In this document: positions 4,083 to 39,273 of the stretch, piece by piece
How positions within the stretch are numbered: the first letter of the stretch is position 1
How the letters are laid out: every line of letters begins with the position of its first letter
Sequence record: PX246731.1
Reading direction: 5' to 3' (one strand)
Source of the DNA: a phage
Length of the DNA: 64,000 bases
Made by a program: the position numbers and the translations under genes
Notes under the pieces: generated by a model
Database searches by the model: none
The model's input: the letters and a program-made list of their open reading frames with translations, nothing else
What the model was told of the DNA's origin: nothing

Positions 4083-5258
4083 ATGAACCAATTTCCTCAG
4101 CACACACTTAGTGATGAACAACTCATGCGTGAGTATGACCGTATTCAGGCTCAGGCCTTCCTGGGCAAGTCTGCTGCGTTCTTTGGTTCATTGCTGTGTA
4201 GTCTTAAGTTCTCATGGAAACGTGAGGATTGCCCCACTGCATGTACTGATGGGATAGAACTCCATTTCAACCCAGACTTCTTTATCTGGATGTGTCCAGA
4301 TGCAAGAGAAACAGTATTAATGCATGAACTATGGCATGTAGCATATCTACATGACATCCGTCGTGGAAGCCGTGACCCGGAAATCTGGAACCAGGCTTGT
4401 GACCACTTCATTAACCTTCAGTTAGAAGAAGATGGTTACAAGTTCACTGGCATTGACAAAGGCATTTGCAAAGACCCTCAATATAAAGGATGGGTCGAAG
4501 AAGACATCTACGATGACCTGATGAAGAACCCTCAGAAAAGGCAGAAGCCGTCAGGGGGTGCTGGAGCAGGTCTTGCTGGCGACATGAAATCCCCCACTTC
4601 GGGGCAGTCCCAGGGTGCTGTTGTCAACAACGTAGTACGTGCAATGCAGAGCCAAAAGATGGCTGGTGGAACAATGCCCGGTAAGGGTGCTGGTCGTATG
4701 GAAGAGGTTATTACCCAATTCCTTAAACCAGTGGTTCCATGGCAGGAAGTTCTCATGAACTTCTTTACCGACATTGATGACACACATTATACGTGGGCCA
4801 GACCTAACCGTCGTTACACTGACATCTATCTACCTTCACTGGAAGATGATGAAGGTCGTTTACGCCACTTAGCCTACTTTGAGGATGTGTCTGGTTCTAT
4901 TAGTAGTGCTGACTCTCTGCGTTTTAACTCAGAGGTCGCCTATGTTAAGAGCCAGTTTAATCCTAAGAAGATGACCCTAATTACCTTCGACGATACTATT
5001 CAAGAAGAGATAGACATCACTGAAGAAGATACTTTTGAAGAGATTAAGATTACTGGTCGTGGTGGTACAAACCTGGAACCAGTACGCGAGTGGATTATTA
5101 AGAATAAGCCAACCGCTGCAATCATATTCTCCGATATGTATGTTCGCCCAATGGAAGAATTGCCATTTGATATCCCTATCATCTGGTGTGTTCTGAATAA
5201 TCCTAATGCTACCGTACCTTTTGGGGAGGTAGTTCATATCCCTAAAGGAATGAAATAA
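4083..5258 (+). CDS. VWA-like domain protein with HExxH metallopeptidase-like N-domain (MoxR partner, DUF2201/COG3864-like)
   Basis: HELWH motif (HExxH) in the N-domain; C-terminal VWA-like region (MTLITFDDT..ITGRGGTN). Sits directly downstream of the MoxR ATPase, the canonical MoxR-VWA arrangement. Start chosen at the first ATG after the exon 3 stop; ORF track shows an upstream extension from 3999. Confidence 0.6.
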   Translation: MNQFPQHTLSDEQLMREYDRIQAQAFLGKSAAFFGSLLCSLKFSWKREDCPTACTDGIELHFNPDFFIWMCPDARETVLMHELWHVAYLHDIRRGSRDPEIWNQACDHFINLQLEEDGYKFTGIDKGICKDPQYKGWVEEDIYDDLMKNPQKRQKPSGGAGAGLAGDMKSPTSGQSQGAVVNNVVRAMQSQKMAGGTMPGKGAGRMEEVITQFLKPVVPWQEVLMNFFTDIDDTHYTWARPNRRYTDIYLPSLEDDEGRLRHLAYFEDVSGSISSADSLRFNSEVAYVKSQFNPKKMTLITFDDTIQEEIDITEEDTFEEIKITGRGGTNLEPVREWIIKNKPTAAIIFSDMYVRPMEELPFDIPIIWCVLNNPNATVPFGEVVHIPKGMK

Positions 5259-23611: not shown

Positions 23612-24364
23612 ATGTCCGAAGTAATTCCCAATGATATGAACACTCAGCTAATCCTGATTGCAGGATTCTCAGCGAGTGGTAAATCAGCATCACTGCGTAA
23701 CATCCGGAACCAGGAACGCTGGCTCTATCTGAATACTGAAGCAGGTAAACGTCTGCCTTTCCGTAACAAATTTAATACTTACAACATTGAAGACCCATAC
23801 CAGATTTGGGAAGCATTTGATGTTGCATCTCCTGGTGGAGAAATGGCAGATGATGTTGATGGTATCATCATTGACTCAGCAACCTTTATGATGGATATGC
23901 TGGAATCCCAGTACGTATTGCCTTCTGCAAATACGCAAAAGGCATGGGGTGACTTTGCACAGTTCTTTAAGATACTGCTGCAACAAAAAGTCGTTAAGTT
24001 TGGTAAGCCAGTAATCATTACTGCTCATGCTAAAGACGAACTTGATGAAGCTGCTGGTGTAATGAAAACATTCATCCCAGTGAAAGGTTCTCTGAAGAAT
24101 AACGGGCTTGAAGCCTACTTCTCTACAGTGGTTTACGCAGAACGTGTAGACATTAAAGAACTGGAGAAGTACGGAAACAAGATGCTTGAAATTACGGAAG
24201 AAGAACGTGACTTAGGGTATAAGCACGTATTCCAGACCCGTCCAACTAAGAAGTCGGTCGGTAAACGACTTCGTTCTCCAATGGGTATGTTCGATAAGTC
24301 CGAGACTTACATTGATAACGATGCCCAAAAACTCTTAGACCATCTGGCTGAATACTACGCTTAA
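23612..24364 (+). CDS. P-loop ATPase (putative)
   Basis: Walker A-like ILIAGFSASGKSAS and Walker B-like GIIIDSATFM; gaggaa RBS. Confidence 0.45.
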   Translation: MSEVIPNDMNTQLILIAGFSASGKSASLRNIRNQERWLYLNTEAGKRLPFRNKFNTYNIEDPYQIWEAFDVASPGGEMADDVDGIIIDSATFMMDMLESQYVLPSANTQKAWGDFAQFFKILLQQKVVKFGKPVIITAHAKDELDEAAGVMKTFIPVKGSLKNNGLEAYFSTVVYAERVDIKELEKYGNKMLEITEEERDLGYKHVFQTRPTKKSVGKRLRSPMGMFDKSETYIDNDAQKLLDHLAEYYA

Positions 24365-24403
24365 GCGTTTGCCTGGTTGTTAATCACTTATTAGGAAAAT
24401 CAT

Positions 24404-25201
24404 ATGTCATTGTTCAGTAATCTGAAAGAAAAAACCAAAAACGTTGAAGCTGTTAAAGACTCCCTGGGTGGTGGTGGCTTCGGTGCAAAAGAAACCGATA
24501 TCTACACTGGTACTGTAAAAGTAGCTTACGTAGGCAAAGCTGACTCTGGTGCAGATTGGATGCAGTTAATCATTGAAGACCTGAAGAACTCTGATGGCGT
24601 ACCTGCTGGTGAGTTCCGTGCTCAGGTGTACTTCACTTCTGGTAATGCTAAAGGCAACAAGCCGACTTACGAGAAGAACGGTAAAGAGTACTTCTTGCCT
24701 GGCTACACTGTCATTAACGACATGATGCTGATGGCTACCGGTACTGAACTGCCTGAAGCTGACTTCGAAGAGAAGATTGTTAAAGTCTATGACTTCGATG
24801 CTAAAGCAGAAGTTAATAAATCCGTCATGGTTCCGGTTGACCTGGTAGGTCAGACTGTTACCTTCGCTCTGGAAAAGGTTCTGGAATCCAAGCAGGTTAA
24901 AGGTGACAACGGTTACGTTGACTCCGGTGAAACTCGTGAAGTAAACGAGATTCAGAAAGTGTTTCATCCGGAACTGTTGGTCACAGTCGTCGAAGCTCAG
25001 GAAGCAGAGAAGGCTGAGAAAGAACTGACCCCAGAACTGGCTGTATTCTATGCAGCATGGCTAGAGAAGAACAAAGGCAAGACTCGTGACAAGACTAAGA
25101 GTTCTGCTGGTGGTAATGGTAAAGGTGGCTTGCCTCCTAAACCTGGTGCTGGCACGGGTACTACTCCTACTGGTGGTAAATCACTGTTCGGTAAACGTTA
25201 A
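24404..25201 (+). CDS. single-stranded DNA-binding protein (N4 SSB-like)
   Basis: Position after the primase/ATPase genes and length (265 aa) match what I recall for the N4 SSB; Gly-rich segments. Identity is by synteny and size. Confidence 0.5.
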   Translation: MSLFSNLKEKTKNVEAVKDSLGGGGFGAKETDIYTGTVKVAYVGKADSGADWMQLIIEDLKNSDGVPAGEFRAQVYFTSGNAKGNKPTYEKNGKEYFLPGYTVINDMMLMATGTELPEADFEEKIVKVYDFDAKAEVNKSVMVPVDLVGQTVTFALEKVLESKQVKGDNGYVDSGETREVNEIQKVFHPELLVTVVEAQEAEKAEKELTPELAVFYAAWLEKNKGKTRDKTKSSAGGNGKGGLPPKPGAGTGTTPTGGKSLFGKR

Positions 25202-25755
25202 TGAAAATCCCAATTGTCGGTGCAGACATTAGTCTCCGCAATTGGGGTTTAGCTCGTGGGATGCTGGACATTGAGTCCGGCGTCTTCGAGCAGGTCGAAC
25301 TTAAACTGGTTCAAACTGAAGTTGACCACAACAAACAAGTTCGAACCAACTCCAAAGATATACAAGCCGCTCACGATTTGTTTCTTGGTTGTGAGGAATG
25401 GTTACGGTCTGCTAAAGCAGTATTCGTAGAAGTACCAGTAGGCTCTCAGTCTGCTAACGGTATGAAATCCTATGGCGTATGCGTAGGATTAATAGGTGCA
25501 TTTCGTGCATTGGGTTGTCCAATCTTTGAAGTATCCCCAATTGAAAACAAACTTGCACTGGTCGGTGATAAAACTGCATCCAAGGACACGATGATTCGTG
25601 CTGCTCATGCCATCTATCCTGAAGCCAACTGGCTCACGGATAAGAAAGGCAAACTTCTGAATAAGAATGAGCACTTAGCAGATGCAATCGGTGCAATCCA
25701 TGCTGGTGTAAATCTCCCAGCTTTCCAGAACCTCATTAAATTATTAAAGGCGTAA
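25201..25755 (+). CDS. RuvC-like Holliday junction resolvase
   Basis: IVGADISLRNWGLA resembles the RuvC N-terminal catalytic motif, and LADAIGAIHAG the C-terminal RuvC motif. Confidence 0.55.
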   Translation: MKIPIVGADISLRNWGLARGMLDIESGVFEQVELKLVQTEVDHNKQVRTNSKDIQAAHDLFLGCEEWLRSAKAVFVEVPVGSQSANGMKSYGVCVGLIGAFRALGCPIFEVSPIENKLALVGDKTASKDTMIRAAHAIYPEANWLTDKKGKLLNKNEHLADAIGAIHAGVNLPAFQNLIKLLKA

Positions 25756-25756
25756 T

Positions 25757-26203
25757 ATGCAAATCATTTTGAACCAGTCCGAAGTAGAAGCTGCTGTACA
25801 GGCTTATGTCGATGATCAAATCAATCTTGCTGGTGACATCAATATTGTCATCAATGCAGATGGTACTGCCTCCGTTGGTATTAATGAAGAGGTAAGTCAT
25901 GATGATGACACCCCACCCGTGGTAGAGAAGAAGACTCGTCGTTCTCGTAAGAACCCACAAGAAGCTAAACATCGTCCGGTAGAACCAGAACCGGAAGAAG
26001 TAGCTGAAGAGGTAAAGGTAGAAGAAACCCAGACCTCTACTGGTGGTCAGAACGAGAGTTCTACGCCGGAACCTGAAGAAGAAGAAGCAGTAACTGAACC
26101 AGAAGCACAAGAAGAAGTTGTGCAGGAAGAAGTTAAGGCTGAAGAACCAGCAGAAAAACCTGCTACTAAGCCTTCACTGTTCGCTGGCCTTAAACGTAGT
26201 TAA
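25757..26203 (+). CDS. highly acidic low-complexity protein
   Basis: The C-terminal two-thirds is E/P/T-rich (PEPEEVAEEVKVEE, EPEEEEAVTEPEAQEEVVQEEVKAEEP). Confidence 0.45.
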   Translation: MQIILNQSEVEAAVQAYVDDQINLAGDINIVINADGTASVGINEEVSHDDDTPPVVEKKTRRSRKNPQEAKHRPVEPEPEEVAEEVKVEETQTSTGGQNESSTPEPEEEEAVTEPEAQEEVVQEEVKAEEPAEKPATKPSLFAGLKRS

Positions 26204-26434
26204 TCTGGTAGGTGGCTCAGAAGCTGCTGCTAGGTGTGGTAGTGTTTATAGTCCTGATGCTACTACTGGTCAGGATTATAGACGTGTCGGCTCCATACAT
26301 AGCTTTTATCATCACTGTCATTATCCTGTGGAAATGCAGTGGTAAACACGGTGGTGACAAGCCGCCAGAGTAACAACAACCGAACCAGTGTGCAGGAATA
26401 CTCTCCCCTGTGCATTGGTTCAACTGAGGCCAAT

Positions 26435-26605
26435 ATGAACAAATTTACTATTCACTGGTTTAATGGAAAGGTTAGTTCTTTCATGGGTGGAGAACCTGCT
26501 GAAGGAAAGAAAGCATTTCACATTGAATCAGAAGGCTGCAAAATCTTAGTACCGTATGTTTGGTATAAAGATGGTGAAGTAGAAGCATTAAAAAAGAGTA
26601 GTTAA
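26435..26605 (+). CDS. hypothetical small protein
   Basis: 56-aa ORF from an internal ATG with tgagg RBS (ORF track 26339..26605). Confidence 0.3.
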   Translation: MNKFTIHWFNGKVSSFMGGEPAEGKKAFHIESEGCKILVPYVWYKDGEVEALKKSS

Positions 26606-27185
26606 TATCGTGAAGGGTTCTGTTAGAATCCTTTGAGATAGGAACTCCTATCATAACCTTTCTTAACTTAATCTTTGCCGTATGGCACTGACGCTAGGGT
26701 TGATGCCCATCCGTCAGTTAGACTATTTTAAGAATGGGTTATCACAGAAAATGTAAAGCAACATTCGGGTTAATCAATGGCCTCTCCCTATATGGGCCAT
26801 TTCTGAATCTTAGGCTATATCCCAAAGGTTAGTATCTTTGGGATAAGGCTTCAGATCCCTTATCAAACTAACGCTCATGTTGAGCACAACATTAACCCTT
26901 AATGTCGGATAGTTCATTAGGCTATTCCTCCAACATCGAGATGTTAGGTCTTACATGTAAGCTAAAACATAGGGTAAAGAGGGACTTGTCATCCCTCCCC
27001 TATTATGACATCCTATCAATGAGTACATTAAGCTAACGTGCGGAGGTTTACACTGTAGCCGGTGTAGATAGAGAAGACGGCAGGATAGCTACCTGTGCTT
27101 AGTGTACTCTTTGATAGGTTGTGCTATCAAAGTCCAGACGATATCTGAGTGACTTTAAAAACAGATGGAGCCAGGTGGAATCCCT

Positions 27186-27261
27186 GGCAATTAATTCCGG
27201 TGTAGGTACTAGTGTCGTGCACGGCATGAGCATTCTGGTTCGAGTCCAGACGCCGGAACCA
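27186..27261 (+). tRNA. tRNA-like gene 1 (3' half well defined; 5' boundary approximate)
   Basis: T-arm tctgg-ttcgagt-ccaga (27234-27250), 3' acceptor strand cgccgga (27251-57), discriminator A, encoded CCA (27259-61). A complementary tccggtg lies at 27196-27202, only 63 nt upstream, so the cloverleaf could not be completed by hand. Confidence 0.45.
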
Positions 27262-27263
27262 AT

Positions 27264-27387
27264 TACCAGTTGCACGAGATGGCTTGACATGTTCAAGTTT
27301 GGACTAAGTATGACACCGCTAGATTGGAGGGCTGCTGCGGTAAGCTATAGACTCCAACCGGGGGTTCGAATCCCTCACTGGTAACCA
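27264..27387 (+). tRNA. tRNA-like gene 2 (possibly carrying an insertion; boundaries approximate)
   Basis: T-arm ggggg-ttcgaat-ccctc (27360-76), 3' acceptor strand actggta (27377-83), A, CCA (27385-87). The only perfectly complementary 5' strand, taccagt, is at 27264-70, giving about 121 nt, longer than a canonical tRNA. Confidence 0.4.
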
Positions 27388-27439
27388 ATTCAAAGTAGCA
27401 TTGTGATAATCCATCCCGGAGTTCAAAGGCCAAACATGG

Positions 27440-27514
27440 AGCAGTGCTACTTTGAATTAGAAGAATTATGGCGGGTCTGGTGAAGTAGATGGGGTTCGAT
27501 TCCCTCCGGTGGGT
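27440..27514 (+). tRNA. tRNA-like element 3 (T-arm/acceptor-like 3' half; uncertain)
   Basis: ggggttcgattccctc T-arm-like motif at 27491-27506 followed by cggtggg; no convincing 5' acceptor strand found by hand. Confidence 0.3.
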
Positions 27515-27581
27515 AAAACCACTAGCGTGCTTGGTGCACGAATAAGACTTAATACTGGTGGTTCGATTCCATCCCCCGTTA
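27509..27581 (+). tRNA. tRNA-like element 4 (uncertain)
   Basis: T-arm ggtgg-ttcgatt-ccatc (27557-73), 3' acceptor-like ccccgtt (27574-80); partial 5' complement ggtgggt at 27509-15 (73-nt span). Candidate anticodon hairpin at 27525-41 with UGG in a 7-nt loop. No encoded CCA. Confidence 0.35.
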
Positions 27582-27890
27582 TTTGAAGTCGCCAGGTACT
27601 TATGGCAAACGGGTAGTAACGAACTAGTCATTCGTCAAACGCCCACCTTATTATGAGTCAGCAAGAACGCCTTCACTTAAACTTAAACAAAAAAAAGCTT
27701 AACGCAATAATTATGTAGGGGTATGTAAGGATTGCGAAGAAGGAGCCAGTTAAAGCCTGGCATGACTCAACTTATTAATAGAGAACATAGTCCTGATTGC
27801 ATTGCACTCTAAAGACAATGCCGGTGAGACAGTCCGGCACTCTAATTATTGTAAACATACAAGACTCGTTAGCTGCGTTAAAGCTACTAA

Positions 27891-27918
27891 GTCCCTCTTC
27901 GGAGGGACTTTTTTATTT
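27891..27918 (+). terminator. Rho-independent terminator
   Basis: Stem gtccctc(27891-97)/gagggac(27902-08) with 4-nt loop, followed by ttttttattt. Confidence 0.7.
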
Positions 27919-27978
27919 GAGTATTAATAAGCGCAACCATGTTTAAGTACAAATTCAAACCACTCTATGAGGCTAATA

Positions 27979-28440: not shown

Positions 28441-28469
28441 AGCCCCTCTAATGAAGGGCTTTTTCATTT
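28441..28469. terminator. Bidirectional terminator hairpin between convergent genes
   Basis: Stem agcccct(28441-47)/agggct(28455-60) flanked by A-runs upstream and T-runs downstream; sits at the 3' ends of the plus-strand gene 27979..28359 and the minus-strand vRNAP gene. Confidence 0.6.
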
Positions 28470-31400
28470 AGTTAGTGAGGTTGAGCCATGGGTTCAGGGT
28501 ATGGGCACGTAAACCTTGTCCGAAACCGAAGGAGTAACCGAGATTACCCTGTGCAGCAATGCTAAAGATGTTGTCCTGAATAGGTAAACCAACGTTACCA
28601 AACATGGTAGGAGTTGGTGCTAACATAGCCATAGCAGCATGTACCGGGTTATTACGAATCATGGACACTGCAACTTTTGCAGAACGAATCTTAAAGTTGT
28701 AGAACCACATTAAACCAACACTTTCCATATATCCACGGAAGCGTCCTGGTAAACGGTCATAGTTAATGAACTCTTCCGTTACACGTCCTAGTGCTTCTTC
28801 ACGAGTCTTACCCTTACGCTGAGTCAGTTCATCATAAATGATTGCTTTAGCGATAAAGTCAGAGTACTCAACTGTCTTCTGAATACCCTGGAACAGAGCA
28901 GTATCCTTAGTGATAAGTGCATAACGACCAGCGTTACGTACAGACTTAGGCAGCTTATCAGCCAGCTTATCCATGTATTCGTGAAGTTTACCTTCAGTAA
29001 TCAGAATGTCATCACGCCCGATACCAGCATCTGCAATTGAAGAGAACTCTCCAGCTTCCAACAGAGGCCAGATACTCAAACGTTTATGGCTATCAGAGAT
29101 GGACTGAATCTCAGCCTTAAGTTTACGAATCTGGTTCGGGTTAGTAGCTGCACGTAATTCTGCTTCTGCATCTACCTGACGCAGACGAGATTTCAAGTAC
29201 TGGTTAATCTCAGCAGTTTTCTGTGGAATGCTCTTAGCAATATTCTTAACAGGTACACCACGAGCAACCATCTGGTAAAGGTTAGCCAGGAAGTTAACAG
29301 CAGGTACGACTACTGACTTAACTACAATCAGAGTCTTAGCTTCTTTAACTAAGTTCTGAACCAGGTTCTCACCACCCATTACGTACTTATAGGCACGGTT
29401 ACCAAATACACCCAGCATAGCTTTCTTGAAGGTATCCAGTGTTTCTGGGGACCAACGAGAATTACCAGACCAGGCATCACCAACAGAAGCTGCACGATAA
29501 CCAAGAGCATCATTCAGCATGTCACGACGTACCCACAATTCACCAGGACCAAACAGACTTTCTGCTTTCTGACGTGTTTCGCTGTTCATCAGTTTAAGAG
29601 CATCAGCAGTTACTGGGTCCAGTTTAGAACCAAGAAGGTTAACGTACTGGGACTTATTAGAGGCAGACATCTTAATGTCGTTCTCATACATGCTATGCAG
29701 GTTCTCAATCAGCATATCGTTGAAACGCTGAGCCTTAGCCTCTTCTACCTGACGTCCACGCCATACACCGATTGCACGAGCAAGATGGTTCTCACCTTCA
29801 ATATGCTTCAGCATGTTAGGGTCAATAGATTGCTCGTAAGCAACCACATTGCCATTGGCATCATATACAGGCAGCAGGGGTTCATTACCACGTTCACCAC
29901 GAGCCAGTGCTTTAGTGATACGGTCTACGGAAGGCTTGTCAGTAATACGACCAGCTACCATGGTTCCCATCGTAAAGCCTGTACCTAGGTCTACACCACC
30001 AGCAGTATTACGAACGTTCTGCAGGATACCCTGTGAGAATGGAGCCTGTGCCTGTACTGGTGCAAAGTAGTAGCTACGAGCAGAACCACGATTAGCAGAG
30101 CTACCCTGATACGTACCCAGTCGTACATAGGATTTCTCAATCAAATCAGCAAACTGACTATCTTCAGCAACAATCAGGTTAACGCCCTGTTTAGTTTCAC
30201 CAGGAATATACCCTTTGTACTGGTTCAGGGTTGCACGGCTATCAGACTTGGCTTTAGCCATTTCATCTTTACGCTGACCAACCAGGTAAGAAGTAGCAAA
30301 GTCCATGCCTTCAATTTCTGTCTGAGCCAGCGAAGATAACATCTCACGGTCAATCTTATTCATTGCTTCCAGTGCATATAGGGTAATGAGTTTATCCAGC
30401 TGAGCTACATCAACAACAGAACGTGTAGTCTTACGTTCACCAAGCAAGCGAGAAATTGCAGTAGCATTACGCAGTAGGTTATTACCAACTGTACCATTAA
30501 TCATGTACTGAGCCAGTTGCTTAGATTTACGATTAATCAGAGGCCAGTTACGCCCTGCTTGTTTCTGCAAATCTGCTTCCAGTTTATTAACCTCACGGTC
30601 AACAATCTTCTGGTCAGTCAGCAGGTCACGGATTTCATCCAGAGACATAGTGTCACGTAGAACAGCTAAGTCAGTTTTACCCATACCGGTATGCATTGCT
30701 TTCCACTCATCGTTGGTCAGCTTACGGCTGAACTTAGCTGCGATAGTGGTAGGCAAGTGTTCACGGAACTGTTGACGGTCAGCCTGTACCTGTGCACGTA
30801 CTGCTTTAATCAAATCATACACAGAAGCATTGCTCTTAGTACGTCCGATTATGTCATTAACCAGGTCATGGAAAGGTTGCCATACTTTACCCTGATTCAT
30901 TGCAGCCATAACACCCTCAGCTACGATTGAACCATTCTTCTCTGTAGCAATAGCAGCTACCAGTTGTGCAGCATGAGCAGCACCTTTAACCAGTGGGTTC
31001 TTGGTATTAGCTGCAACTTCACGAGCACCTTCCAGAGCACGGGTAGACAGTACATCAATAGAGTCCACCAGATACTGGTTAGCACGGTCAATAGCATTAC
31101 CAGTAGGAGTAGCAACGGAATCATAGAAGGACTCTGCATTAAGACTGGTCTGCATGATTGTCTGAGCCAGTGCATCCATACCTTCCTGTACGTTAGTGGC
31201 TTTAGTATCACCTGCTACACGAGCATTCAGACTAGCCATTGCAGCAGTACCGATGTTAGTCAGCATTGCATCAACAGTATTGCCTGACTTCTTATCCGCT
31301 TTCATAACAGGAATATCAGCCAGTACCTTACGTACCTCTTCACTTACCATTGCCAGACCTACAAAGGTAGGCAGCAAGGAAGAACGACCCTGTGCATCAA

Positions 31401-34400
31401 ACTCAATATTGTTAGCACCCATGATGGTATCGAACTTCTGCTGTGCATAGTAACGGTCAGCAGGGTTAGTACTATCCGGGTCAGCCATGAACGCTTCAAC
31501 AGTCAAGTTCTTAGTAACGTGTGTGTAGTATTCCTGTGCACGAGCCATAGCAGCAGGATTAATAGCAGCCTCGGTAGCCAGTGCAGCAACAATGTTAGTA
31601 AAGAGACGCTGTTCCTGCATATTCATGGTGAAGCCATGAGCCTGAACATCACGGGTTACTTTAGTTGCATTCACTACTGCATCAGAGAACTTACCTTTAC
31701 GAATTACTTGCTGTACTGGTTCTGAACCAATGTAGTTAGTAATTAGCTTATCGAAGGTTTTCCCTAACTCTTCCAGACGAGTATTGTCACCATATGCTTT
31801 GTTATGGAACAGGGTAGTGTCCTTAGCTACAGCAGCAGTAGGAGCTTGCCCACGCATTACTACAGCAGAGTTAAACAGTAAGCCAGAGAACATATCATCT
31901 GCATTAGCTGGAGCTTTCTTACGACCAAATACCAGACGTTTGATTGCTTCGTATACAGCCTGAACCATAGTTTTAAGTGCAGTGGTTTTCTTCTGCTTAC
32001 TAATCAGTTCTCGGTTGGTTAAACCCCAAGCCATGTACTCGTTCAGTGCAGCAGCTTTAGCCATTGCTGGTTCAATGAAGCCATTAGACAAGTGACCATT
32101 AATGGTATTAAGTGCATCAGCATATGCTTCACGTACTGCCGGAGATTCATCATTAACATCCAGAGCACGGAACTGGTTCATCAGGTCTTCAATATTCTGG
32201 ACAGCTTCATTAGGAGTACCTTCGTAGTGAGCCAGTACAGATTCAAAAGTAGAAGCATGTACCAATTCATGAACCAGAGTCTCTAATGAAGGAGTAACTA
32301 AGTAGATGGTCTTATCTTCAAAGTTAGTCCAGCCATATGCATTACCTGCTTCAGCAGCCTCAATATCTTCTGGTGCTGGGCGAGTAATATTCTTCTCAAT
32401 AGCATAGGCATCCAGTTGAGAAGGTGTACCATAAACAACCTTATAGTCTTTAGCAGCAAGGGATTTCTGTATTTCTTTCAATACTTCTTGCTGTTCAGGA
32501 GACATCTCTTTAGCCAATTTAGTAATAGCAGTATTAGACAGCAGACGTACACCAGATTTCAGTACACGACCAACTTGTTCCATTGCTGGTACTTCTTTCA
32601 CTGGTTCTGCTTTAGCAGCACGTACTGCATCACGACGCTTGTTTAATTCAGCATCAAACAGTTCGTTCAGCTTAGCTACTTGCTGGTCTACAGTAAGCCC
32701 TTCCAGAGAGATTTTACCGTTGTTCACATAAGGAGCACCAACAGCAGCCATCTGGTCAACAGTGACTTGTACCTGGTCCATTACCTTGTGACGAATATCT
32801 ACACCCAGGGCAATGTTACGCAGATTACGCTCAATCAATGCAATACCAGAATCCTTAATCATAGAAATTTTATAATCTCTATCACCATCTACTCTGGCAA
32901 TATGAGTACGTTGCTCAAAGTCTAAAGCAGACTTTGCAATAGCATCTATTGCTGAATCGGACAGCTTATTTAAATCAACATTCTTAACAAACTTAGAGAA
33001 AGACTCATAAACATTCTTGATAGGGTTACCCTGCCAGGAAGTGTATACAGCCTCATTAGCTTTACGGCTTGCATCAGTAATGTCATTGATACCAATGTTC
33101 ATACCATCAAAGATTTTAAGGGTATTCTTCGGAGCACCCTTCATAGTAGAAAGAGTCTGCATCATCATGCCATCACCAGTACCAATGGTCATAAATGGAA
33201 TACCTGCAACACCTGCTTGTGAAGGAGCATAGATGCTCATTGGCACACGCATACGGTCATCTAAGTTGGTAGCCAATACTTGGTTAGCAACATCAGTATT
33301 CTCGCTGCCAGCAATGTAGAAAGTCTGGGAACCAGTCTCAATCATTGGAGCCAGTGGTGCTAAACTATTCTGAATTTCATTCAGTTCTTTCTGTGTTAAG
33401 AAATCACCCTTCTTCCATGTTGGGTCTTTTTCTTTTTCTGCCAGTTTAGCCTGTACTGCCTGTTGGAACATATCCTGCAATACCAGAGATTGAATCTGAG
33501 TAGCCTTCTGCAAGTTCTCCGTAGATTGCATTAACCCATCGCCAACAGTGAATCGGATACCTTGTCTCATTGGCTCAACAAAGAAGTGCAGCATATTCTC
33601 TTGTAAGTTCTTAAGAGCATCTCCGGATACGGTAAACTCCTGGGGGTCTAACTTACCAGTCAGAACACCATCTACTTCTTTAATGAATAACTTACCTTTA
33701 CGCTTAGCTGGAATATTACCAGTCAATGCTTTCATAGAAGTAAGGAAGGTATCCAGCATAGCCTGAGCATCAGCCTCAGAAGCAGCCTCCTTACCAAACA
33801 TCGCCATAGCTGGGGAAATGTTAGGGTCAACAGCACGGGCTTTCAGAACGTCGCTTAGACGCTCATAGATGGTATCAGTAATTGCACTTACCATCTTGCC
33901 TGCAATACCACGAGCACCAGAACCATAAATGGTAATAGTCAGTGGGTTTTTAGCGATACCACGCTTCAGGTCCAGAGTACCATCTTCATTAAGATTGAAG
34001 TCTTTGATGAACAGGTCCATTAACTTCTGGAGATGGTCCATCTGGTTTATAACAGGAATATTTTTACTATAAGCATTGCGTAATTCATTTAGATAGAATT
34101 GCAGACTATTAGTAGATGCTTCATACAGGTCAACACTGTCTTCCTGAGTATGATGCTCATTCATGGTCTTACCGGCTTTACCGAAGAACAAACCACCTTT
34201 GGCAGTATTCTTAATCCAGTTTGGAGTGAACTTACCACCGGTCATTAATACCATTGCGTTGATTGGACCGTTGGTTACACCATCGGCTTCAACGTACAGT
34301 GGGGTATTAAAGTTGGCACGGTCATCACTGTTAAGGTAACGGGCATATTCCATAAGAGCCATAAGAGCTACAAAGGATTTATCATTACCCAAAGAGGTCG

Positions 34401-37400
34401 TCAGAATATTCACTGCATCGGTAGGTAAGTATCCAGACTTATCAAACTCAACCATCATATCTACAGCAGGTTTCAGCTTACCTTCCAGAGCTTTGGTAAG
34501 TTCCTCTGACATAGTTTCACGAGTCATTTTATGAACTTTGATACCCAATGCCTGAGCCAGTCCAAGCTGGAAGCCTGAGAAGTCTTCATTGTTCTGGTTC
34601 GATAAATCCAGAGTAGCTTTGGTAGGTAAGATAGCCTCACGAACTAGCTTAGCTGATTGAGGGTTATATTTACCTAACATCTGCATACGACCAACACGGG
34701 TCATATTGTAAGCATAGTGAATAGGTACAGAAGAAATGTCTTCACTCTGTGCTCTTACCTGTTCAATAACAGAGAACAATTGGTTGTAAGAATCCTCTAC
34801 TGAACGGTTTTTACCTTCCAGAGATTTAGCATGGTTCTTATTAAGTAAATCCTTATCCAGAGTACCAGCACCCATCAATTCGAGAATACGGTCTTTACCT
34901 AAAGCCTCATAGAACTGAACCATTGGGGTATGCACAAAGAACTCTGTAGCCTGCTCTGCTTTAAGGGCAGCTTTCTGTTCCGGAGTATTACGGACAGCAG
35001 GGTTACGTAACTGAGTATGAGCCACGGGAGGAATGTCATCACCGAAATACAGTTTCTCTACTGGTTCTACGAGGACAGCTTCCTCGATAGCAGTAGGGAA
35101 TTTGTTAATAGCGTCGGTATCATCCAGCTTCTCAATGGTATACAGACCAATAGTCTTATTGGATTCTGGGTCAATTTCAGACACATCCAGCATGGACTCT
35201 TTAACTTCACCCATTTCAATAAGGGAAGACAGAATCTCTGTAGCCATTGCCATCGGGATACCTTTGGTATAACCAAGTGGTGCATCAGCATTACGATTAA
35301 GTCCCCAGTAAGATTCAATCTTTTGAGCCAGTGAGTTAGTAGCTTCTACTAAGGTTTGTGCATTCTCAAATTCTGCGAGGATACCTTCTGGTAACAAGGA
35401 AGCATTTACACCAGTAATTGCAGCCACATCCTGCATGTCTTTAATAGCAGCATTCTGTGTAGCAGTAAGTCGCCATTGCAGACCAGCAAGTACAGCAGTC
35501 TCTAACAACTGGTCATTGAACTTAAAGGTGTCTCCGTCTTTCTCTACGATATTAAGTAACTTACCACCTACCCAACGGTTAGCTTCAGTACCTTCTGCAA
35601 AACGTTTACCAACGTTCTTGTTAGCAAGGAATTTAGCCAGACGGTCAGACAAAGTAGTCTTCAGAGTTTCACCAAACTCAAATAAGTCCTGGTAACGCTT
35701 AATCACATCACTTGTGAGAGCGTTATTTTCTTTTTGAGTAAATGCTTCAAAACGAGCAGCAGAAGACAGTGCTTTCTTAACATCAGTTAAAGGAGATTCA
35801 GAACCAATGGTACGGGACTTAGGTTCTTCTGGCAGACTAAATGCTTTAAGGAACTGGTTCGGTGTCTTTTCATTGTTATAGACAGGGAACACTGCTTCCA
35901 TTCCCGATAGAGGTTTACCACCAACAGTATAGTCTGCTTTCAGTTGAGCCAGTGATACTTCTTCTTTCTCAACATTATTGGTATTAAGCCCAGATGTATC
36001 TACACCAATCTGAATCAGTGCATTGTTTGCTTCTACGAATGATTGAACAGTATTGAATTGTTCAGCAGTTAGCTTCTGATTATCAAACAATTGCAGAGAT
36101 ACGAACGGTTGCTCACTACCTTTATAGAAAGTAGAACGTACAGCACCAGTATCCAGAGACATGTCACGATAACCATCATGACCAAATACGTCAGACAGAC
36201 TGATATGGTCGCCATTGGAACCAACAACAGTACCATCAGCGAATAGCCATGGACTATCTCTACGGTCACCATACTTATTAAGAGTATCTTGTGAAATAGT
36301 ATTCTCTTTCACATAAGAATCTCTTTCAGATTCAGTAGGCTGTTCAACGATATCCTGTTTTTCAGACTGGTTCTCAGGTTCTTTTACGGTTTGTGGTTTA
36401 GACTCTTTAATAGTAGGTTCTGTTTTAACAGCTTCACTAACAGAGGGTTTAGTCTGTACAGTAGGGGTAACTGGTTCCTGTTTTATAACAGGAGCTTCAT
36501 CAACCTGATTCACTGGTTCATTGGTCTGTTGGGATTGAGCAGCATCAAGATTGCCCTGACGGAACTCTTTAACTACCTGGGCAGCAGGTTTGTCCAGACG
36601 TGAATCCAATGGGGTAACTTTCACATGAGAAACATTAAGCTCCGGGTAAGCCGTAGCAAGTGCGTTAGCAATATCAGCTACGGTCTTGGCTTCCAGTCCT
36701 ACTTGCTGGGCAAACTTAACAGACTTGGTATCATACGGATTGACACCGAGGCCAGTACGACTACGTACCCATTCACGCGAGGGAGTAAGAGCCTGATAAT
36801 GGACAGACTTATTCTTATCCGCATTCCCAGAAATCAAATGCTCATTCAATGCTCCGACCTTATTCTGCATGTGCTGGGCGAACTTCATAAAGTCGTCGAG
36901 ATAAGCGGAAGCCAAATCGAAGTTACCAGAGTTGTACGCAGAACGAATGCGTTTAGCATGTTGCAACGCAGAGTACTGGCCTTCATTAGAACGAGATTCG
37001 TCGGTTTTAATCTGTTTACTAACAATGTCTTGAGGACGTAAGCCTAGTTCTTCTGCTTTAGCGTCAAATTCTCGTGCTCCTTGCAATAAAGCAGCAGCAG
37101 ATTGCAGGGCAGCACGCTGACGATTACCCAGTGTAATCTTACCTTCACTTGCATGTTTCAGAACCATGTTCACTGAATCCGCATCCAGCACTTCTGGAGA
37201 CATATCAGCAGCCATAGCAATGTTGTTTGCCTGAGCTTGGTTAGCTTTTTCAGTAGCTTTCAGTTTACCTGCTTCAGCCTGTTCCTGAATCATAGAATGG
37301 ATGGCACGGAATGCACGGAGTACCTTCGGTGTATTCTGAACATTAGCCATCAGGCCAGAGAATTGGTCAACAATATTAGCAGCAGGAGAACCCTGTTCCA

Positions 37401-39273
37401 GATTAGCCAGAGCACCCGGGTCACGGTTAATGAAGCTATCCATAGACATGATGTTGTCATACATCTGGATTGCAGCTTCCATTTGAACGTTAGGGTCTTC
37501 GGCAGTATTAACCAAGTCAGCCATCTTCTGAATAGCTTCAACACGGTTAGTGGAACCAGAAACAGCTTCACGGATTGCCGGGCTAGCCTGTTCCAGTTCT
37601 ACTGGGTCAAACTTCATTACCTGAGTTAAGTCAGCAGCATACTGTGTAGCAGCAGCTTTCTCTTCAGGAGAAATGTCCATTGCATCTACTGCTTCCTGAA
37701 CAGTTGCCTGTGCCTGTTCTGCCTGAGCAGTAGCTTCTTGTGCAGCAGCGTTAACCGTAGCATCAGATACAGGGGATGCTTGCTCATTACGCTTAGCAAC
37801 TTCTTCACCACGCTGAACCAGGATGTTAGTAATAGGTGAAGCTACTTTCGCTAATGCTTTACCAGCCAGAGAAGCACCAGCCAGGGTAGTACGTACAGCA
37901 GGACCTACGGCAGCACCAGCAGCCTTAACAGTTGCACCAGGAGCTTGAGCAACTCCAGCACTACCGAAGCCATACAGTGCACCAAGCCCGGTTTGTTCAC
38001 CCACACCTTTAAGCAAATCACGATTAGCATCTACATTACCTTGAATTGCTTTGTTCTGTGCAAACTGACTTGTACCAGACTGGATACCTTCTTCTACAGT
38101 CTCACGCAGCATGTTAGAACCAGCTCCAGCCAGTGAACCTACCTTAAGTGGGTTAAGTTCAAACTTGGATACCAGTGGAGCAGTAAGAGCAGCAACTGGA
38201 GCAGTTAAGCCAGCAGCAGTGATACCTGTTTCAGATGCAGTCTGACGACGTGCTTCTTCAGGAGACAGACCATCTTTAATATGCTGTTGGTATACAGGAG
38301 ATTTAGCAGCCAGTTCACTGAACGGCATTTCCATAATTTCATTAGCAGTCTGCTGGTATGCACCACCAGCTTCCATACCACCAATTGCTATAGCAGGTGC
38401 AGCAACACGACCAGTAGCTAATGCAGTACGTGCAGGACGCGAACCTAATTCAGCAGCTAGGGTAATACCCTTAACAGCTTTATCACCACCTACCATTACT
38501 TTACCAAGTGCAGATACACCACGGATAAGTGGACCACCAGTAAACAATGAACCAACACCCTCAGCCAGACCATCTGTAGCAGCCATGCCATTAGATAAGG
38601 TGTTAGCAACAGAATCATAAGCATCACGACCAATTCGAGATAGGGAAGCAACGAGTTCACTTTCTCCTTTATCAATATCTTGCTTATAGAGTTTCTCATT
38701 CTCCTGAGCAGATATTACGTTCTGGTTCTGTACTACATTACGGCGAGCATTCAGTGCATCAGACTGTAGGTTGTGTACACCTTTATTTAACCAGTCAAGA
38801 CCGGAAGCAGTGGATGCCCCGGCATTATCATTGACCAAACCTGTGCCAAGAGCAGCAATGCCCCCAAGGGTATTAGCAACACCAAGACCAACACCAGAAA
38901 GGGTATCACCAAGTGCTTCACCATATGTACGACTCTTAGTTAAATCACGACGAACAGCATTAGCTGCATTGACACGAGCATTGAGAATGTCCATTCCTTG
39001 CTCATTGCCATACTTGTTTATGATTTCAAGAGGAGAGGCATTAGTAAAATCTGCCTGAATAGAACCTGGGTTAAATGCACCAGCACCTAAGTTACCAGCA
39101 CGGCCTGCCTGTAATTGGTAGGCGTTCTGTGGGGTTAATTGGAAAGGGTTTTGCCCTTGTTCAGCTTGTTTCCGAGAGGTTGCAGTAGAGACATCGACTT
39201 GCTTAGCAGTAGTGATGCTGTCTGCGAAACCTGCCAGACGGTCAAATGTTGACATAGCATGATTCCTGTTCAA
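28468..39273 (-). CDS. virion-encapsidated RNA polymerase (N4 vRNAP-like giant protein)
   Basis: Single uninterrupted 3601-aa ORF. A roughly 3500-aa virion RNA polymerase is the hallmark of N4-like phages, and the position at the start of the minus-strand late block matches N4 gp50. Confidence 0.8.
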   Translation of the reverse strand: MNRNHAMSTFDRLAGFADSITTAKQVDVSTATSRKQAEQGQNPFQLTPQNAYQLQAGRAGNLGAGAFNPGSIQADFTNASPLEIINKYGNEQGMDILNARVNAANAVRRDLTKSRTYGEALGDTLSGVGLGVANTLGGIAALGTGLVNDNAGASTASGLDWLNKGVHNLQSDALNARRNVVQNQNVISAQENEKLYKQDIDKGESELVASLSRIGRDAYDSVANTLSNGMAATDGLAEGVGSLFTGGPLIRGVSALGKVMVGGDKAVKGITLAAELGSRPARTALATGRVAAPAIAIGGMEAGGAYQQTANEIMEMPFSELAAKSPVYQQHIKDGLSPEEARRQTASETGITAAGLTAPVAALTAPLVSKFELNPLKVGSLAGAGSNMLRETVEEGIQSGTSQFAQNKAIQGNVDANRDLLKGVGEQTGLGALYGFGSAGVAQAPGATVKAAGAAVGPAVRTTLAGASLAGKALAKVASPITNILVQRGEEVAKRNEQASPVSDATVNAAAQEATAQAEQAQATVQEAVDAMDISPEEKAAATQYAADLTQVMKFDPVELEQASPAIREAVSGSTNRVEAIQKMADLVNTAEDPNVQMEAAIQMYDNIMSMDSFINRDPGALANLEQGSPAANIVDQFSGLMANVQNTPKVLRAFRAIHSMIQEQAEAGKLKATEKANQAQANNIAMAADMSPEVLDADSVNMVLKHASEGKITLGNRQRAALQSAAALLQGAREFDAKAEELGLRPQDIVSKQIKTDESRSNEGQYSALQHAKRIRSAYNSGNFDLASAYLDDFMKFAQHMQNKVGALNEHLISGNADKNKSVHYQALTPSREWVRSRTGLGVNPYDTKSVKFAQQVGLEAKTVADIANALATAYPELNVSHVKVTPLDSRLDKPAAQVVKEFRQGNLDAAQSQQTNEPVNQVDEAPVIKQEPVTPTVQTKPSVSEAVKTEPTIKESKPQTVKEPENQSEKQDIVEQPTESERDSYVKENTISQDTLNKYGDRRDSPWLFADGTVVGSNGDHISLSDVFGHDGYRDMSLDTGAVRSTFYKGSEQPFVSLQLFDNQKLTAEQFNTVQSFVEANNALIQIGVDTSGLNTNNVEKEEVSLAQLKADYTVGGKPLSGMEAVFPVYNNEKTPNQFLKAFSLPEEPKSRTIGSESPLTDVKKALSSAARFEAFTQKENNALTSDVIKRYQDLFEFGETLKTTLSDRLAKFLANKNVGKRFAEGTEANRWVGGKLLNIVEKDGDTFKFNDQLLETAVLAGLQWRLTATQNAAIKDMQDVAAITGVNASLLPEGILAEFENAQTLVEATNSLAQKIESYWGLNRNADAPLGYTKGIPMAMATEILSSLIEMGEVKESMLDVSEIDPESNKTIGLYTIEKLDDTDAINKFPTAIEEAVLVEPVEKLYFGDDIPPVAHTQLRNPAVRNTPEQKAALKAEQATEFFVHTPMVQFYEALGKDRILELMGAGTLDKDLLNKNHAKSLEGKNRSVEDSYNQLFSVIEQVRAQSEDISSVPIHYAYNMTRVGRMQMLGKYNPQSAKLVREAILPTKATLDLSNQNNEDFSGFQLGLAQALGIKVHKMTRETMSEELTKALEGKLKPAVDMMVEFDKSGYLPTDAVNILTTSLGNDKSFVALMALMEYARYLNSDDRANFNTPLYVEADGVTNGPINAMVLMTGGKFTPNWIKNTAKGGLFFGKAGKTMNEHHTQEDSVDLYEASTNSLQFYLNELRNAYSKNIPVINQMDHLQKLMDLFIKDFNLNEDGTLDLKRGIAKNPLTITIYGSGARGIAGKMVSAITDTIYERLSDVLKARAVDPNISPAMAMFGKEAASEADAQAMLDTFLTSMKALTGNIPAKRKGKLFIKEVDGVLTGKLDPQEFTVSGDALKNLQENMLHFFVEPMRQGIRFTVGDGLMQSTENLQKATQIQSLVLQDMFQQAVQAKLAEKEKDPTWKKGDFLTQKELNEIQNSLAPLAPMIETGSQTFYIAGSENTDVANQVLATNLDDRMRVPMSIYAPSQAGVAGIPFMTIGTGDGMMMQTLSTMKGAPKNTLKIFDGMNIGINDITDASRKANEAVYTSWQGNPIKNVYESFSKFVKNVDLNKLSDSAIDAIAKSALDFEQRTHIARVDGDRDYKISMIKDSGIALIERNLRNIALGVDIRHKVMDQVQVTVDQMAAVGAPYVNNGKISLEGLTVDQQVAKLNELFDAELNKRRDAVRAAKAEPVKEVPAMEQVGRVLKSGVRLLSNTAITKLAKEMSPEQQEVLKEIQKSLAAKDYKVVYGTPSQLDAYAIEKNITRPAPEDIEAAEAGNAYGWTNFEDKTIYLVTPSLETLVHELVHASTFESVLAHYEGTPNEAVQNIEDLMNQFRALDVNDESPAVREAYADALNTINGHLSNGFIEPAMAKAAALNEYMAWGLTNRELISKQKKTTALKTMVQAVYEAIKRLVFGRKKAPANADDMFSGLLFNSAVVMRGQAPTAAVAKDTTLFHNKAYGDNTRLEELGKTFDKLITNYIGSEPVQQVIRKGKFSDAVVNATKVTRDVQAHGFTMNMQEQRLFTNIVAALATEAAINPAAMARAQEYYTHVTKNLTVEAFMADPDSTNPADRYYAQQKFDTIMGANNIEFDAQGRSSLLPTFVGLAMVSEEVRKVLADIPVMKADKKSGNTVDAMLTNIGTAAMASLNARVAGDTKATNVQEGMDALAQTIMQTSLNAESFYDSVATPTGNAIDRANQYLVDSIDVLSTRALEGAREVAANTKNPLVKGAAHAAQLVAAIATEKNGSIVAEGVMAAMNQGKVWQPFHDLVNDIIGRTKSNASVYDLIKAVRAQVQADRQQFREHLPTTIAAKFSRKLTNDEWKAMHTGMGKTDLAVLRDTMSLDEIRDLLTDQKIVDREVNKLEADLQKQAGRNWPLINRKSKQLAQYMINGTVGNNLLRNATAISRLLGERKTTRSVVDVAQLDKLITLYALEAMNKIDREMLSSLAQTEIEGMDFATSYLVGQRKDEMAKAKSDSRATLNQYKGYIPGETKQGVNLIVAEDSQFADLIEKSYVRLGTYQGSSANRGSARSYYFAPVQAQAPFSQGILQNVRNTAGGVDLGTGFTMGTMVAGRITDKPSVDRITKALARGERGNEPLLPVYDANGNVVAYEQSIDPNMLKHIEGENHLARAIGVWRGRQVEEAKAQRFNDMLIENLHSMYENDIKMSASNKSQYVNLLGSKLDPVTADALKLMNSETRQKAESLFGPGELWVRRDMLNDALGYRAASVGDAWSGNSRWSPETLDTFKKAMLGVFGNRAYKYVMGGENLVQNLVKEAKTLIVVKSVVVPAVNFLANLYQMVARGVPVKNIAKSIPQKTAEINQYLKSRLRQVDAEAELRAATNPNQIRKLKAEIQSISDSHKRLSIWPLLEAGEFSSIADAGIGRDDILITEGKLHEYMDKLADKLPKSVRNAGRYALITKDTALFQGIQKTVEYSDFIAKAIIYDELTQRKGKTREEALGRVTEEFINYDRLPGRFRGYMESVGLMWFYNFKIRSAKVAVSMIRNNPVHAAMAMLAPTPTMFGNVGLPIQDNIFSIAAQGNLGYSFGFGQGLRAHTLNPWLNLTN

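Follow-up and report, generated by a model that had tools for sequence, protein, structure and literature searches.

The gene at positions 25757-26203 on the plus strand of a 64,000-nucleotide (nt) stretch of phage DNA (sequence record PX246731.1; hereafter the window) encodes gp47, a highly acidic protein of a family found across N4-like phages. We found that gp47 is modular, that it ends in a short peptide like that at the tail of the single-strand DNA-binding protein (SSB) encoded two genes upstream, and that its gene is linked to genes for Holliday-junction resolvases. With a confidence that falls a little short of even, we propose a role for gp47 as a resolvase-associated adaptor, docking on whichever receptor the SSB tail binds. 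We are far more confident that its function resides in its N-terminal domain (N-domain) and its C-terminal tail, called here the SLF tail after its Ser-Leu-Phe core, and not in DNA mimicry; the informative parts of this protein are its non-acidic ones.

The open reading frame (ORF) runs from ATG to TAA and encodes 148 amino acids (aa) plus a stop. The protein contains 29 Glu, 7 Asp, 9 Lys and 5 Arg, with a net charge of -22 and an isoelectric point (pI) of 4.3, and it tops the acidity ranking of the 76 window ORFs of at least 100 aa (-0.149 charge per residue, with the runner-up at -0.089). The first-pass annotation had described a highly acidic protein downstream of a resolvase gene, and these values, together with the PHROG 159 gene lying 1 nt upstream, bear this out. 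It had also reported Glu/Pro/Thr/Val repeats, of which the low-complexity composition stands (E+P+T+V make up 60% of residues 46-137, net charge -17, and 69% of residues 76-137, net charge -20), while the repeats do not, as Tandem Repeats Finder returned no tandem repeats in the ORF. The charge is also unevenly distributed along the protein: residues 1-45 are acidic, residues 56-75 (KKTRRSRKNPQEAKHRPV) form a basic patch, and the last 11 residues are basic and hydrophobic.

Selection acts on these parts to very different degrees. The ratio of nonsynonymous to synonymous substitution rates (dN/dS) of window gp47 versus G7C is 0.22 overall, and by part it is 0.14 for residues 1-45, 0.22 for residues 46-75, 0.38 for the acidic stretch and 0 for the last 11 residues; versus KP8, the dN/dS of the tail is 0.07 despite a dS above 1. 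The 646 close homologues of window gp47 are 145-150 aa long, so that indels among relatives preserve the reading frame. The ORF is a genuine translated gene under purifying selection, strongest on the tail, and these two observations rule out the frameshifted or untranslated artefact that the first-pass annotation had allowed for. Because the tail combines a normal dS with almost no dN, selection is on the peptide and not on the DNA, and a DNA-level cause for the repeated SLF motif was rejected. We also rejected as a gene the 124-aa, Phe/Leu-rich ORF that lies antisense to gp47 on the minus strand (25736-26110), which is a shadow of the GAA/GAG-rich sense codons of gp47.

The window belongs to a G7C-like N4-type coliphage of the genus Gamaleyavirus (family Schitoviridae); its positions 24400-27000 share 98.5% identity with Escherichia phage St11Ph5, and its minus strand encodes a virion RNA polymerase of 3601 aa at 28468-39273. 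The gene at 25757-26203 is a homologue of N4 gp47: its product has a full-length match (residues 1-148, E 3.8e-69) to PHROG 7641, a family of 'unknown function', its residues 1-99 are 100% identical to St11Ph5 gp47, and the orthologue is labelled 'gp47', similar to N4 gp47, in both St11Ph5 and G7C. The gene itself is thus already known as a conserved hypothetical of the Schitoviridae and is catalogued in PHROGs. With the conserved hypothetical proteins of PHROGs 7641, 18842 and 27655, window gp47 shares the N-domain, the tail and the position after gp46; it is among the most acidic members of the family, and it differs from most of them in an N-domain without the KATRGxxG loop and from the family consensus in a tail without the PxN extension. 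A profile search of 1.84 billion representative proteins gave 988 clusters at a cutoff of E ≤ 1e-3, of which 289 reached E ≤ 1e-10, and among the 150 clusters listed nearly all proteins were 130-185 aa long and matched over their full length. The family was confined to N4-like phages in these searches. A search of 185,579 genomes of bacteria and archaea, made with two peptide patterns only, found no relative and hence no prophage context. Pfam gave zero matches for window gp47, 103 relatives and the RusA part of the fusions described below, the PDB held no relative that we could find, and we found no paper on the function of the family or on the SLF motif. Two candidate relatives were rejected. 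P0158 (1301 aa), in which the N-domain seemed to be repeated 11 times, is a false positive, namely a eukaryotic PRY/SPRY coiled-coil protein, and the 'gp47' of a 2026 preprint on Migulavirinae and Thoeris is an unrelated tail-fibre chaperone named under another gene numbering.

Structure prediction with AlphaFold2 (monomer; a deep run with a 134-sequence alignment and also a shallow-alignment run) and family comparison resolve gp47 into four parts, whose charges alternate along the chain (-, +, -, +). The N-domain (residues 1-45, 25757-25891, net -8) is predicted to consist of a strand, a helix (7-21) and a hairpin (28-32/38-42), at a predicted local distance difference test score (pLDDT) of 83-91. 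Its family consensus is MQItLvQsEIEqAl..Y...q..vkeGm.I.idLkATRG..G.tAiiD, in which M1, Q7, E9, I10, E11 and A13 are nearly invariant family-wide. It is followed by a basic half-linker (residues 46-75, 25892-25981, net +3), which includes the patch mentioned above and in which E69, K71, H72 and V75 are invariant among the gp47 proteins of N4, G7C, KP8 and the window. The acidic low-complexity linker (residues 76-137, 25982-26167, net -20) is Pro/Ala/Thr-rich and predicted to be disordered, lacking secondary structure at a pLDDT of 42-60; in the 134-sequence run the linker reached 53-72, with 53-60 for its acidic part. The C-terminal motif KPSLFAGLKRS (26168-26200) closes the protein, and the last 18 residues are modelled in that run at a pLDDT of 81-82 and likewise without regular secondary structure. 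In a charge-hydropathy plot, residues 46-148 fall on the disordered side and residues 1-45 on the folded side. This completes the disorder and charge check that the first-pass annotation had suggested, and of its two functional guesses the disordered scaffold agrees with both the AlphaFold2 models and the charge-hydropathy plot, while the DNA mimic or anti-restriction protein finds no support in the synteny, the location of the conserved parts or the Pfam results.

The linker varies freely in sequence across the family and keeps its charge. In all of the 133 representatives compared it is net negative (mean -9.7) over lengths of 18-116 aa, with a Lys/Ala/Pro-rich first half (mean charge +0.6), which in some members holds an AT-hook-like RRGRPP or PGRKP, and a second half with a mean charge of -10.4. 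The tail motif, with the family consensus [KR]xSLF[AGS][GN]L[KR][KR]PxN, is present near the C-terminus of 146 of 153 representatives with nearly invariant S, L/I, F and L; none of these 146 lacks the F, which mostly stands 9 residues from the C-terminal end, and at least five of the seven motif-less representatives are truncated or have an unrelated ending. The motif is kept where the remaining gp47 sequence is only 27-40% identical, and the window tail is identical to those of Enquatrovirus gp47 proteins (KPSLFAGLKR), which are ~40% identical to window gp47 overall. One irregularity concerns N4 itself. The N4 record NC_008720 (locus L002) contains a 1-nt frameshift within a run of A close to the 3' end of gp47 (~5040-5113), and the C-terminus is annotated as ...KKYRKKRLKNQYKPNLLCLQV; the +2 frame, like every other Enquatrovirus genome, gives ...KEVQEEEAKEPVQAKPSLFAGLKR. 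This could be either a sequencing error or a laboratory-strain mutation that deleted the conserved tail.

The same peptide occurs at both ends of the SSB. In the window, gp45 (24404-25201, plus strand; PHROG 743, E 7.4e-89) is an N4-type SSB that aligns with N4SSB; it starts with MSLFSNLKEK and ends with ...GGKSLFGKR. The N-terminal copy, MSLFSNLK (24404-24427), follows the consensus M-S-L-F-G-N-L-K/T-x-E-G-L-E, and the C-terminal copy, KSLFGKR (25178-25198), stands after a Gly/Pro-rich linker. Both copies are conserved over 32 diverse SSBs, the C-terminal one with an invariant F and a nearly invariant L, and KSLFGK is invariant in the SSBs of N4, G7C, KP8 and the window. No real gene of the window other than those for SSB and gp47 encodes a protein with a terminal SLF. 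The C-terminal copy coincides with a region of N4SSB that is described as essential for late-transcription activation (PMC4496689). We also observed a terminal LF in the virion RNA polymerases of several distant N4-like phages (loci L032, L062 and L067), which end in ...NPW.xLFK or ...ALF-COOH; the window enzyme ends in ...LNPWLNLTN, and the terminal LF is probably unrelated to the SLF motif.

By comparing the three copies in 61 distinct phage lineages, we obtained the forms x[KR]SLF[AG][GN]L[KR] for the gp47 C-terminus, [KR][KT]SLFGxK for the SSB C-terminus and M(S)xLF[GS]NL for the SSB N-terminus. The gp47 and SSB tails change jointly: both read VGLF in L061 and SIF in L040, L012 has KKIF and KRLF, and in L060 and L063 both proteins terminate directly after [AK]LFx. 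Even in the distant Pseudomonas phage LIT1, the SSB and the gp47 homologue (gp66, E 4e-10) both end in SLFS-COOH. When SSBs were shuffled among phages in a permutation test, the association of the gp47 C-terminus with the SSB C-terminus had p=0.00025 and that with the SSB N-terminus p=0.004, values that appear suggestive and not conclusive of co-variation because the test ignores phylogeny.

The genomic setting links gp47 to resolvases. Upstream of gp47 the window holds, in order, a primase, the Sak4-like annealase gp44 (23612-24364, plus strand; PHROG 124, E 1.2e-49; Pfam AAA_24), the SSB and the RuvC-like Holliday-junction resolvase gp46 (25201-25755, plus strand; PHROG 159, E 1.9e-42). The SSB stop overlaps the gp46 start, and the gp46 stop is 1 nt ahead of the gp47 ATG; SSB, gp46 and gp47 therefore form one tightly coupled unit. 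We annotated 84 fetched gp47-anchored loci by profile searches and, counting the window, found the order SSB, resolvase, gp47 in 85 of 85, with the Sak4-like annealase present in all of them. The resolvase itself is of three kinds: gp46-type RuvC-like in 46 loci, canonical RuvC-like (marked by 'GIDPG...DDGRAEA') in 13 and RusA-like in 26. The RusA-like resolvase is a separate gene in 15 loci and is fused in frame to gp47 in the other 11, with gp47 joined to the RusA C-terminus and the gp47 N-domain kept. The fusion also occurs in 10 protein clusters; both of its halves match PHROGs in the eight independent protein clusters scanned, and cultured phages (Rhizobium RHph phages, Roseobacter phage RD-1410Ws-07) also have them. 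Window gp47 is not a fusion but a separate 148-aa protein after a RuvC-like gp46; the fusion profiles are PHROGs 33948 and 14238, and its weak match to PHROG 14238 (E 6e-4) spans the gp47 module only. A search anchored on SSB gave 75 new loci, of which 70 hold gp47 and the other five break off less than 1 kb past SSB at contig ends, so that none of the 75 represents an SSB-bearing lineage without gp47. N4, G7C and KP8 likewise place gp47 immediately after the resolvase. In LIT1, two genes lie between SSB and the resolvase, yet gp47 directly follows the resolvase. Three kinds of resolvase are thus exchanged ahead of a constant gp47, and one kind is repeatedly joined to it in the same polypeptide.

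A further, similar peptide is found in gp46 itself. The gp46 C-terminus LPAFQNLIKLLKA (25717-25752, plus strand; family form TPMFQNLMRLF) resembles a phi-F-x-N-L-basic motif, and all gp46-type resolvases listed end in a ...HAGV.TP[MVLA]FQNLMRL[FL].. peptide that resembles the SSB N-terminus and the gp47 tail motif. The RusA-like and canonical RuvC-like resolvases at the same position are without an end peptide of the MFQNLMRLF type. The gp46 peptide could add a fourth copy to the three motifs above, as a docking element, or merely be the last helix of the fold.

Since terminal peptides of SSBs dock in several systems, gp47 is proposed to dock on the receptor of the SSB tail. In HK620, where sak4 and ssb adjoin as they do in the window, Sak4 binding of SSB-covered single-stranded DNA (ssDNA) requires the six C-terminal residues of the cognate SSB (PMC5928155). 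The acidic tail of T7 gp2.5 contacts the polymerase, and in a T7 replisome model the gp2.5 C-terminus was set on a bound peptide mimicking the gp4 tail, at one polymerase site (PMC12339929). In N4, C-terminal residues of N4SSB are essential for activation of the host RNA polymerase (RNAP) via the C-terminus of beta-prime (PMC4496689), the sole experimentally documented partner of an N4SSB C-terminus. We envisage gp47 as a mostly disordered modular accessory protein of the Sak4-SSB-resolvase recombination block, whose SLF tail would dock on the receptor that the SSB tail uses, so that gp47 and its accompanying or fused resolvase would be recruited to SSB-marked replication or recombination intermediates, or swapped with SSB there. 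As a flexible spacer, the long acidic linker would hold the basic tail away from DNA, and it might also be an ssDNA-like competitor. Candidate receptors would be the Sak4-like gp44, ranked first as part of the same module, followed by host RNAP beta-prime and the phage polymerase. A wider version of this proposal, which we consider unlikely at present, is that N4-like phages possess a docking system not recognised before, with the SLF peptide as its currency, in which both SSB termini, the gp47 tail and possibly the gp46-type C-terminus compete for a single receptor, be it the gp47 N-domain, the Sak4-like annealase or RNAP beta-prime. If true, gp47 would be a dedicated SSB-tail mimic coupling junction resolution to recombination-dependent replication, and perhaps also to the SSB-dependent late-transcription switch.

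Several points weigh against the adaptor proposal, in addition to the disregard of phylogeny in the permutation test. The N-domain is unlikely to bind three unrelated resolvases, and the resolvase link could therefore result from co-expression and not from contact. The fusions are all of the RusA type and may stem from few events. Classical SSB tails have acidic tips, whereas the gp47 tail is basic, and its high pLDDT in a monomer model may mean that it binds gp47's own N-domain.

The last point is part of an explanation that makes the acidic N-domain the receptor: it would bind SLF peptides, namely those at the SSB termini and perhaps the one at the end of gp46, with gp47's own tail acting in cis or in trans, and gp47 would be either an autoinhibited adaptor or the organiser of a recombination factory as a multivalent network or condensate. 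The opposite charges of the acidic N-domain and the basic SLF tails would fit this, as would the alternating charge blocks, which suit multivalent association, and the modelled tail, whose pLDDT of 81-82 without secondary structure, above that of the linker, is expected if the tail is docked. The distribution of motifs over resolvases also fits in part, given that the motif-less RusA is fused directly to the N-domain and the gp46-type resolvases end in MFQNLMRLF; the separate RusA and canonical RuvC-like resolvases, however, have neither motif nor fusion. Raised pLDDT also occurs for conserved, undocked binding motifs, and the SSB-anchored loci (75) include no gp47-less lineage that would show SSB tails persisting alone. 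We regard this explanation as quite unlikely. Host RNAP offers another receptor: gp47 could be a late-transcription regulator whose tail binds the C-terminal region of beta-prime at the site that the N4SSB C-terminus uses, as an anti-activator or timer or as a second activator, with its adjacency to the resolvase being incidental. The tail does copy the N4SSB C-terminus, whose only documented partner is beta-prime, and a conserved host target would account for the conservation of the motif across phages of many hosts. This would leave the constant pairing with, and recurrent fusion to, junction resolvases unexplained; moreover, SSB-dependent late activation is established for N4 and not for other N4-like phages, and the available N4SSB text gives the essential C-terminal residues without exact positions (PMC4496689). 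We assign a low probability to such a regulator.

The idea of the first-pass annotation that gp47 is a DNA mimic inhibiting restriction enzymes or other DNA-binding defence proteins draws on its strong negative charge, gp47 being the most acidic ORF of the window, and acidic tails of phage SSBs can indeed compete with ssDNA (PMC12339929). By analogy with the T7 gp2.5 tail, the acidic half could possibly mimic ssDNA. But constraint is weakest, and variation in both sequence and length greatest, in the acidic part, which is Pro/Ala-rich and predicted to be disordered, with no rigid charge array; selection falls instead on the N-domain and the basic SSB-like tail. Furthermore, the gene is core and syntenic in the middle replication-recombination block of every N4-like phage examined, and not early or accessory, and no anti-restriction Pfam model matches window gp47 or its 103 relatives. 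We consider DNA mimicry highly improbable. The tail could also be read as a motif for the host sliding clamp (DnaN) or as a MinD-like amphipathic membrane anchor, tethering SSB and, via gp47, the resolvase. Bacterial clamp-binding motifs have the consensus QL[SD]LF and are terminal, after flexible linkers, and S-L-F corresponds to positions 3-5 of this consensus; basic residues with L, F and L at i, i+1 and i+4 generally resemble short membrane-targeting helices. The Q-L of the clamp motif is absent, however, with K/R/P/A/G two residues before Ser and K/R/P/T one before (10 of the 146 have Q there); clamp motifs have no counterpart of the conserved xxL[KR][KR]PxN extension, and the Gly/Asn at +4 and the Pro at +8 make a helix less likely. 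N4 replication is not known to depend on the host clamp. Even taken jointly, these two possibilities are very unlikely, and we retain the resolvase-associated adaptor as our preferred, if tentative, reading.

Downstream of gp47, the listed 88-aa GTG ORF at 26339-26605 matches PHROG 14773 over residues 33-88 only, and the real gene there is probably the 56-aa gp47.2 homologue that starts at Met33 (~26435). In G7C, a gene for an HNH homing endonuclease is inserted between gp47 and gp47.2, and it is absent from the window. The following 1.37 kb (26606-27966), between gp47.2 and a gp49 homologue, contain no convincing ORF. This region is 94% identical over its full length to phage U1G, where it is unannotated, and most of the 93 phage records that match it show at least 90% identity; it holds a strong terminator-like hairpin at 27889-27910. 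ARAGORN found no transfer RNA (tRNA) in it and all Rfam matches were below threshold. A tRNA-Ala is annotated in the equivalent region of St11Ph5 and six tRNA genes in that of KP8. An origin, an RNA gene and a decayed tRNA cluster are all conceivable identities for this region.

Phage transcription has been modelled on N4-like phages, which are also widely used as therapy candidates, and gp47 is a core gene in them. The peptide shared by SSB and gp47, together with the invariable resolvase pairing, offers a concrete handle on how their recombination block is organised, and it may bear on the regulation of the multifunctional N4SSB tail in replication, recombination and host RNAP activation. 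For annotation, the lesson is to check which parts are conserved before an acidic low-complexity phage protein is equated with a DNA mimic. T7 Ocr and ArdA, which are folded, form rigid carboxylate arrays and are early or accessory, share with gp47 only their strong negative charge; gp47 is predicted to be disordered, belongs to a core replication block and conserves its non-acidic elements.

The closest parallels are the docking tails of SSB systems (T7 gp2.5/gp4, HK620 SSB, E. coli SSB-Ct). There, as in gp47, a disordered acidic stretch precedes a short conserved peptide with a Phe (essential in those systems), and one peptide is found on two proteins of one machine, here SSB and gp47; HK620 likewise has its Sak4-like annealase gene beside the SSB gene. 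The gp47 peptide is that of its cognate SSB (KSLFGKR), and the two tails co-vary (p=0.00025, phylogeny ignored). The differences lie in the flanks and in the carrier. In SSB docking tails acidic residues flank the anchor (DDDIPF, DTDF, NDYPPF), whereas gp47 has K/R/P ahead of the anchor and [KR][KR]P behind it, its acidity sitting further upstream in the linker. Unlike those tails, SLF is carried in gp47 by a protein without a DNA-binding domain, and the SSB has a related copy at its N-terminus as well. Compared with the activation region of N4SSB (KSLFGKK), the gp47 tail shares the SLF core and the flanking basic residues, but gp47 is without the SSB core. Resolvases are also recruited via a terminal peptide in archaeal Hjc with PCNA and in T4 endonuclease VII with the portal protein. 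The RusA-gp47 fusions share the layout of a resolvase with a flexible terminal element, predicted here to be for docking; there is no sequence relationship, the docking element of the window is a separate polypeptide, and the preferred candidate receptors include neither a known clamp nor a portal. The docking principle is thus known from other SSB systems. New here are the basic flanks of the peptide, its stand-alone carrier, a related peptide at the N-terminus of SSB and an obligatory pairing with resolvases that are themselves interchangeable. If the proposed docking is true, it would add a basic-flanked variant on a stand-alone protein to the SSB-tail docking repertoire represented by T7, HK620 and E. 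coli.

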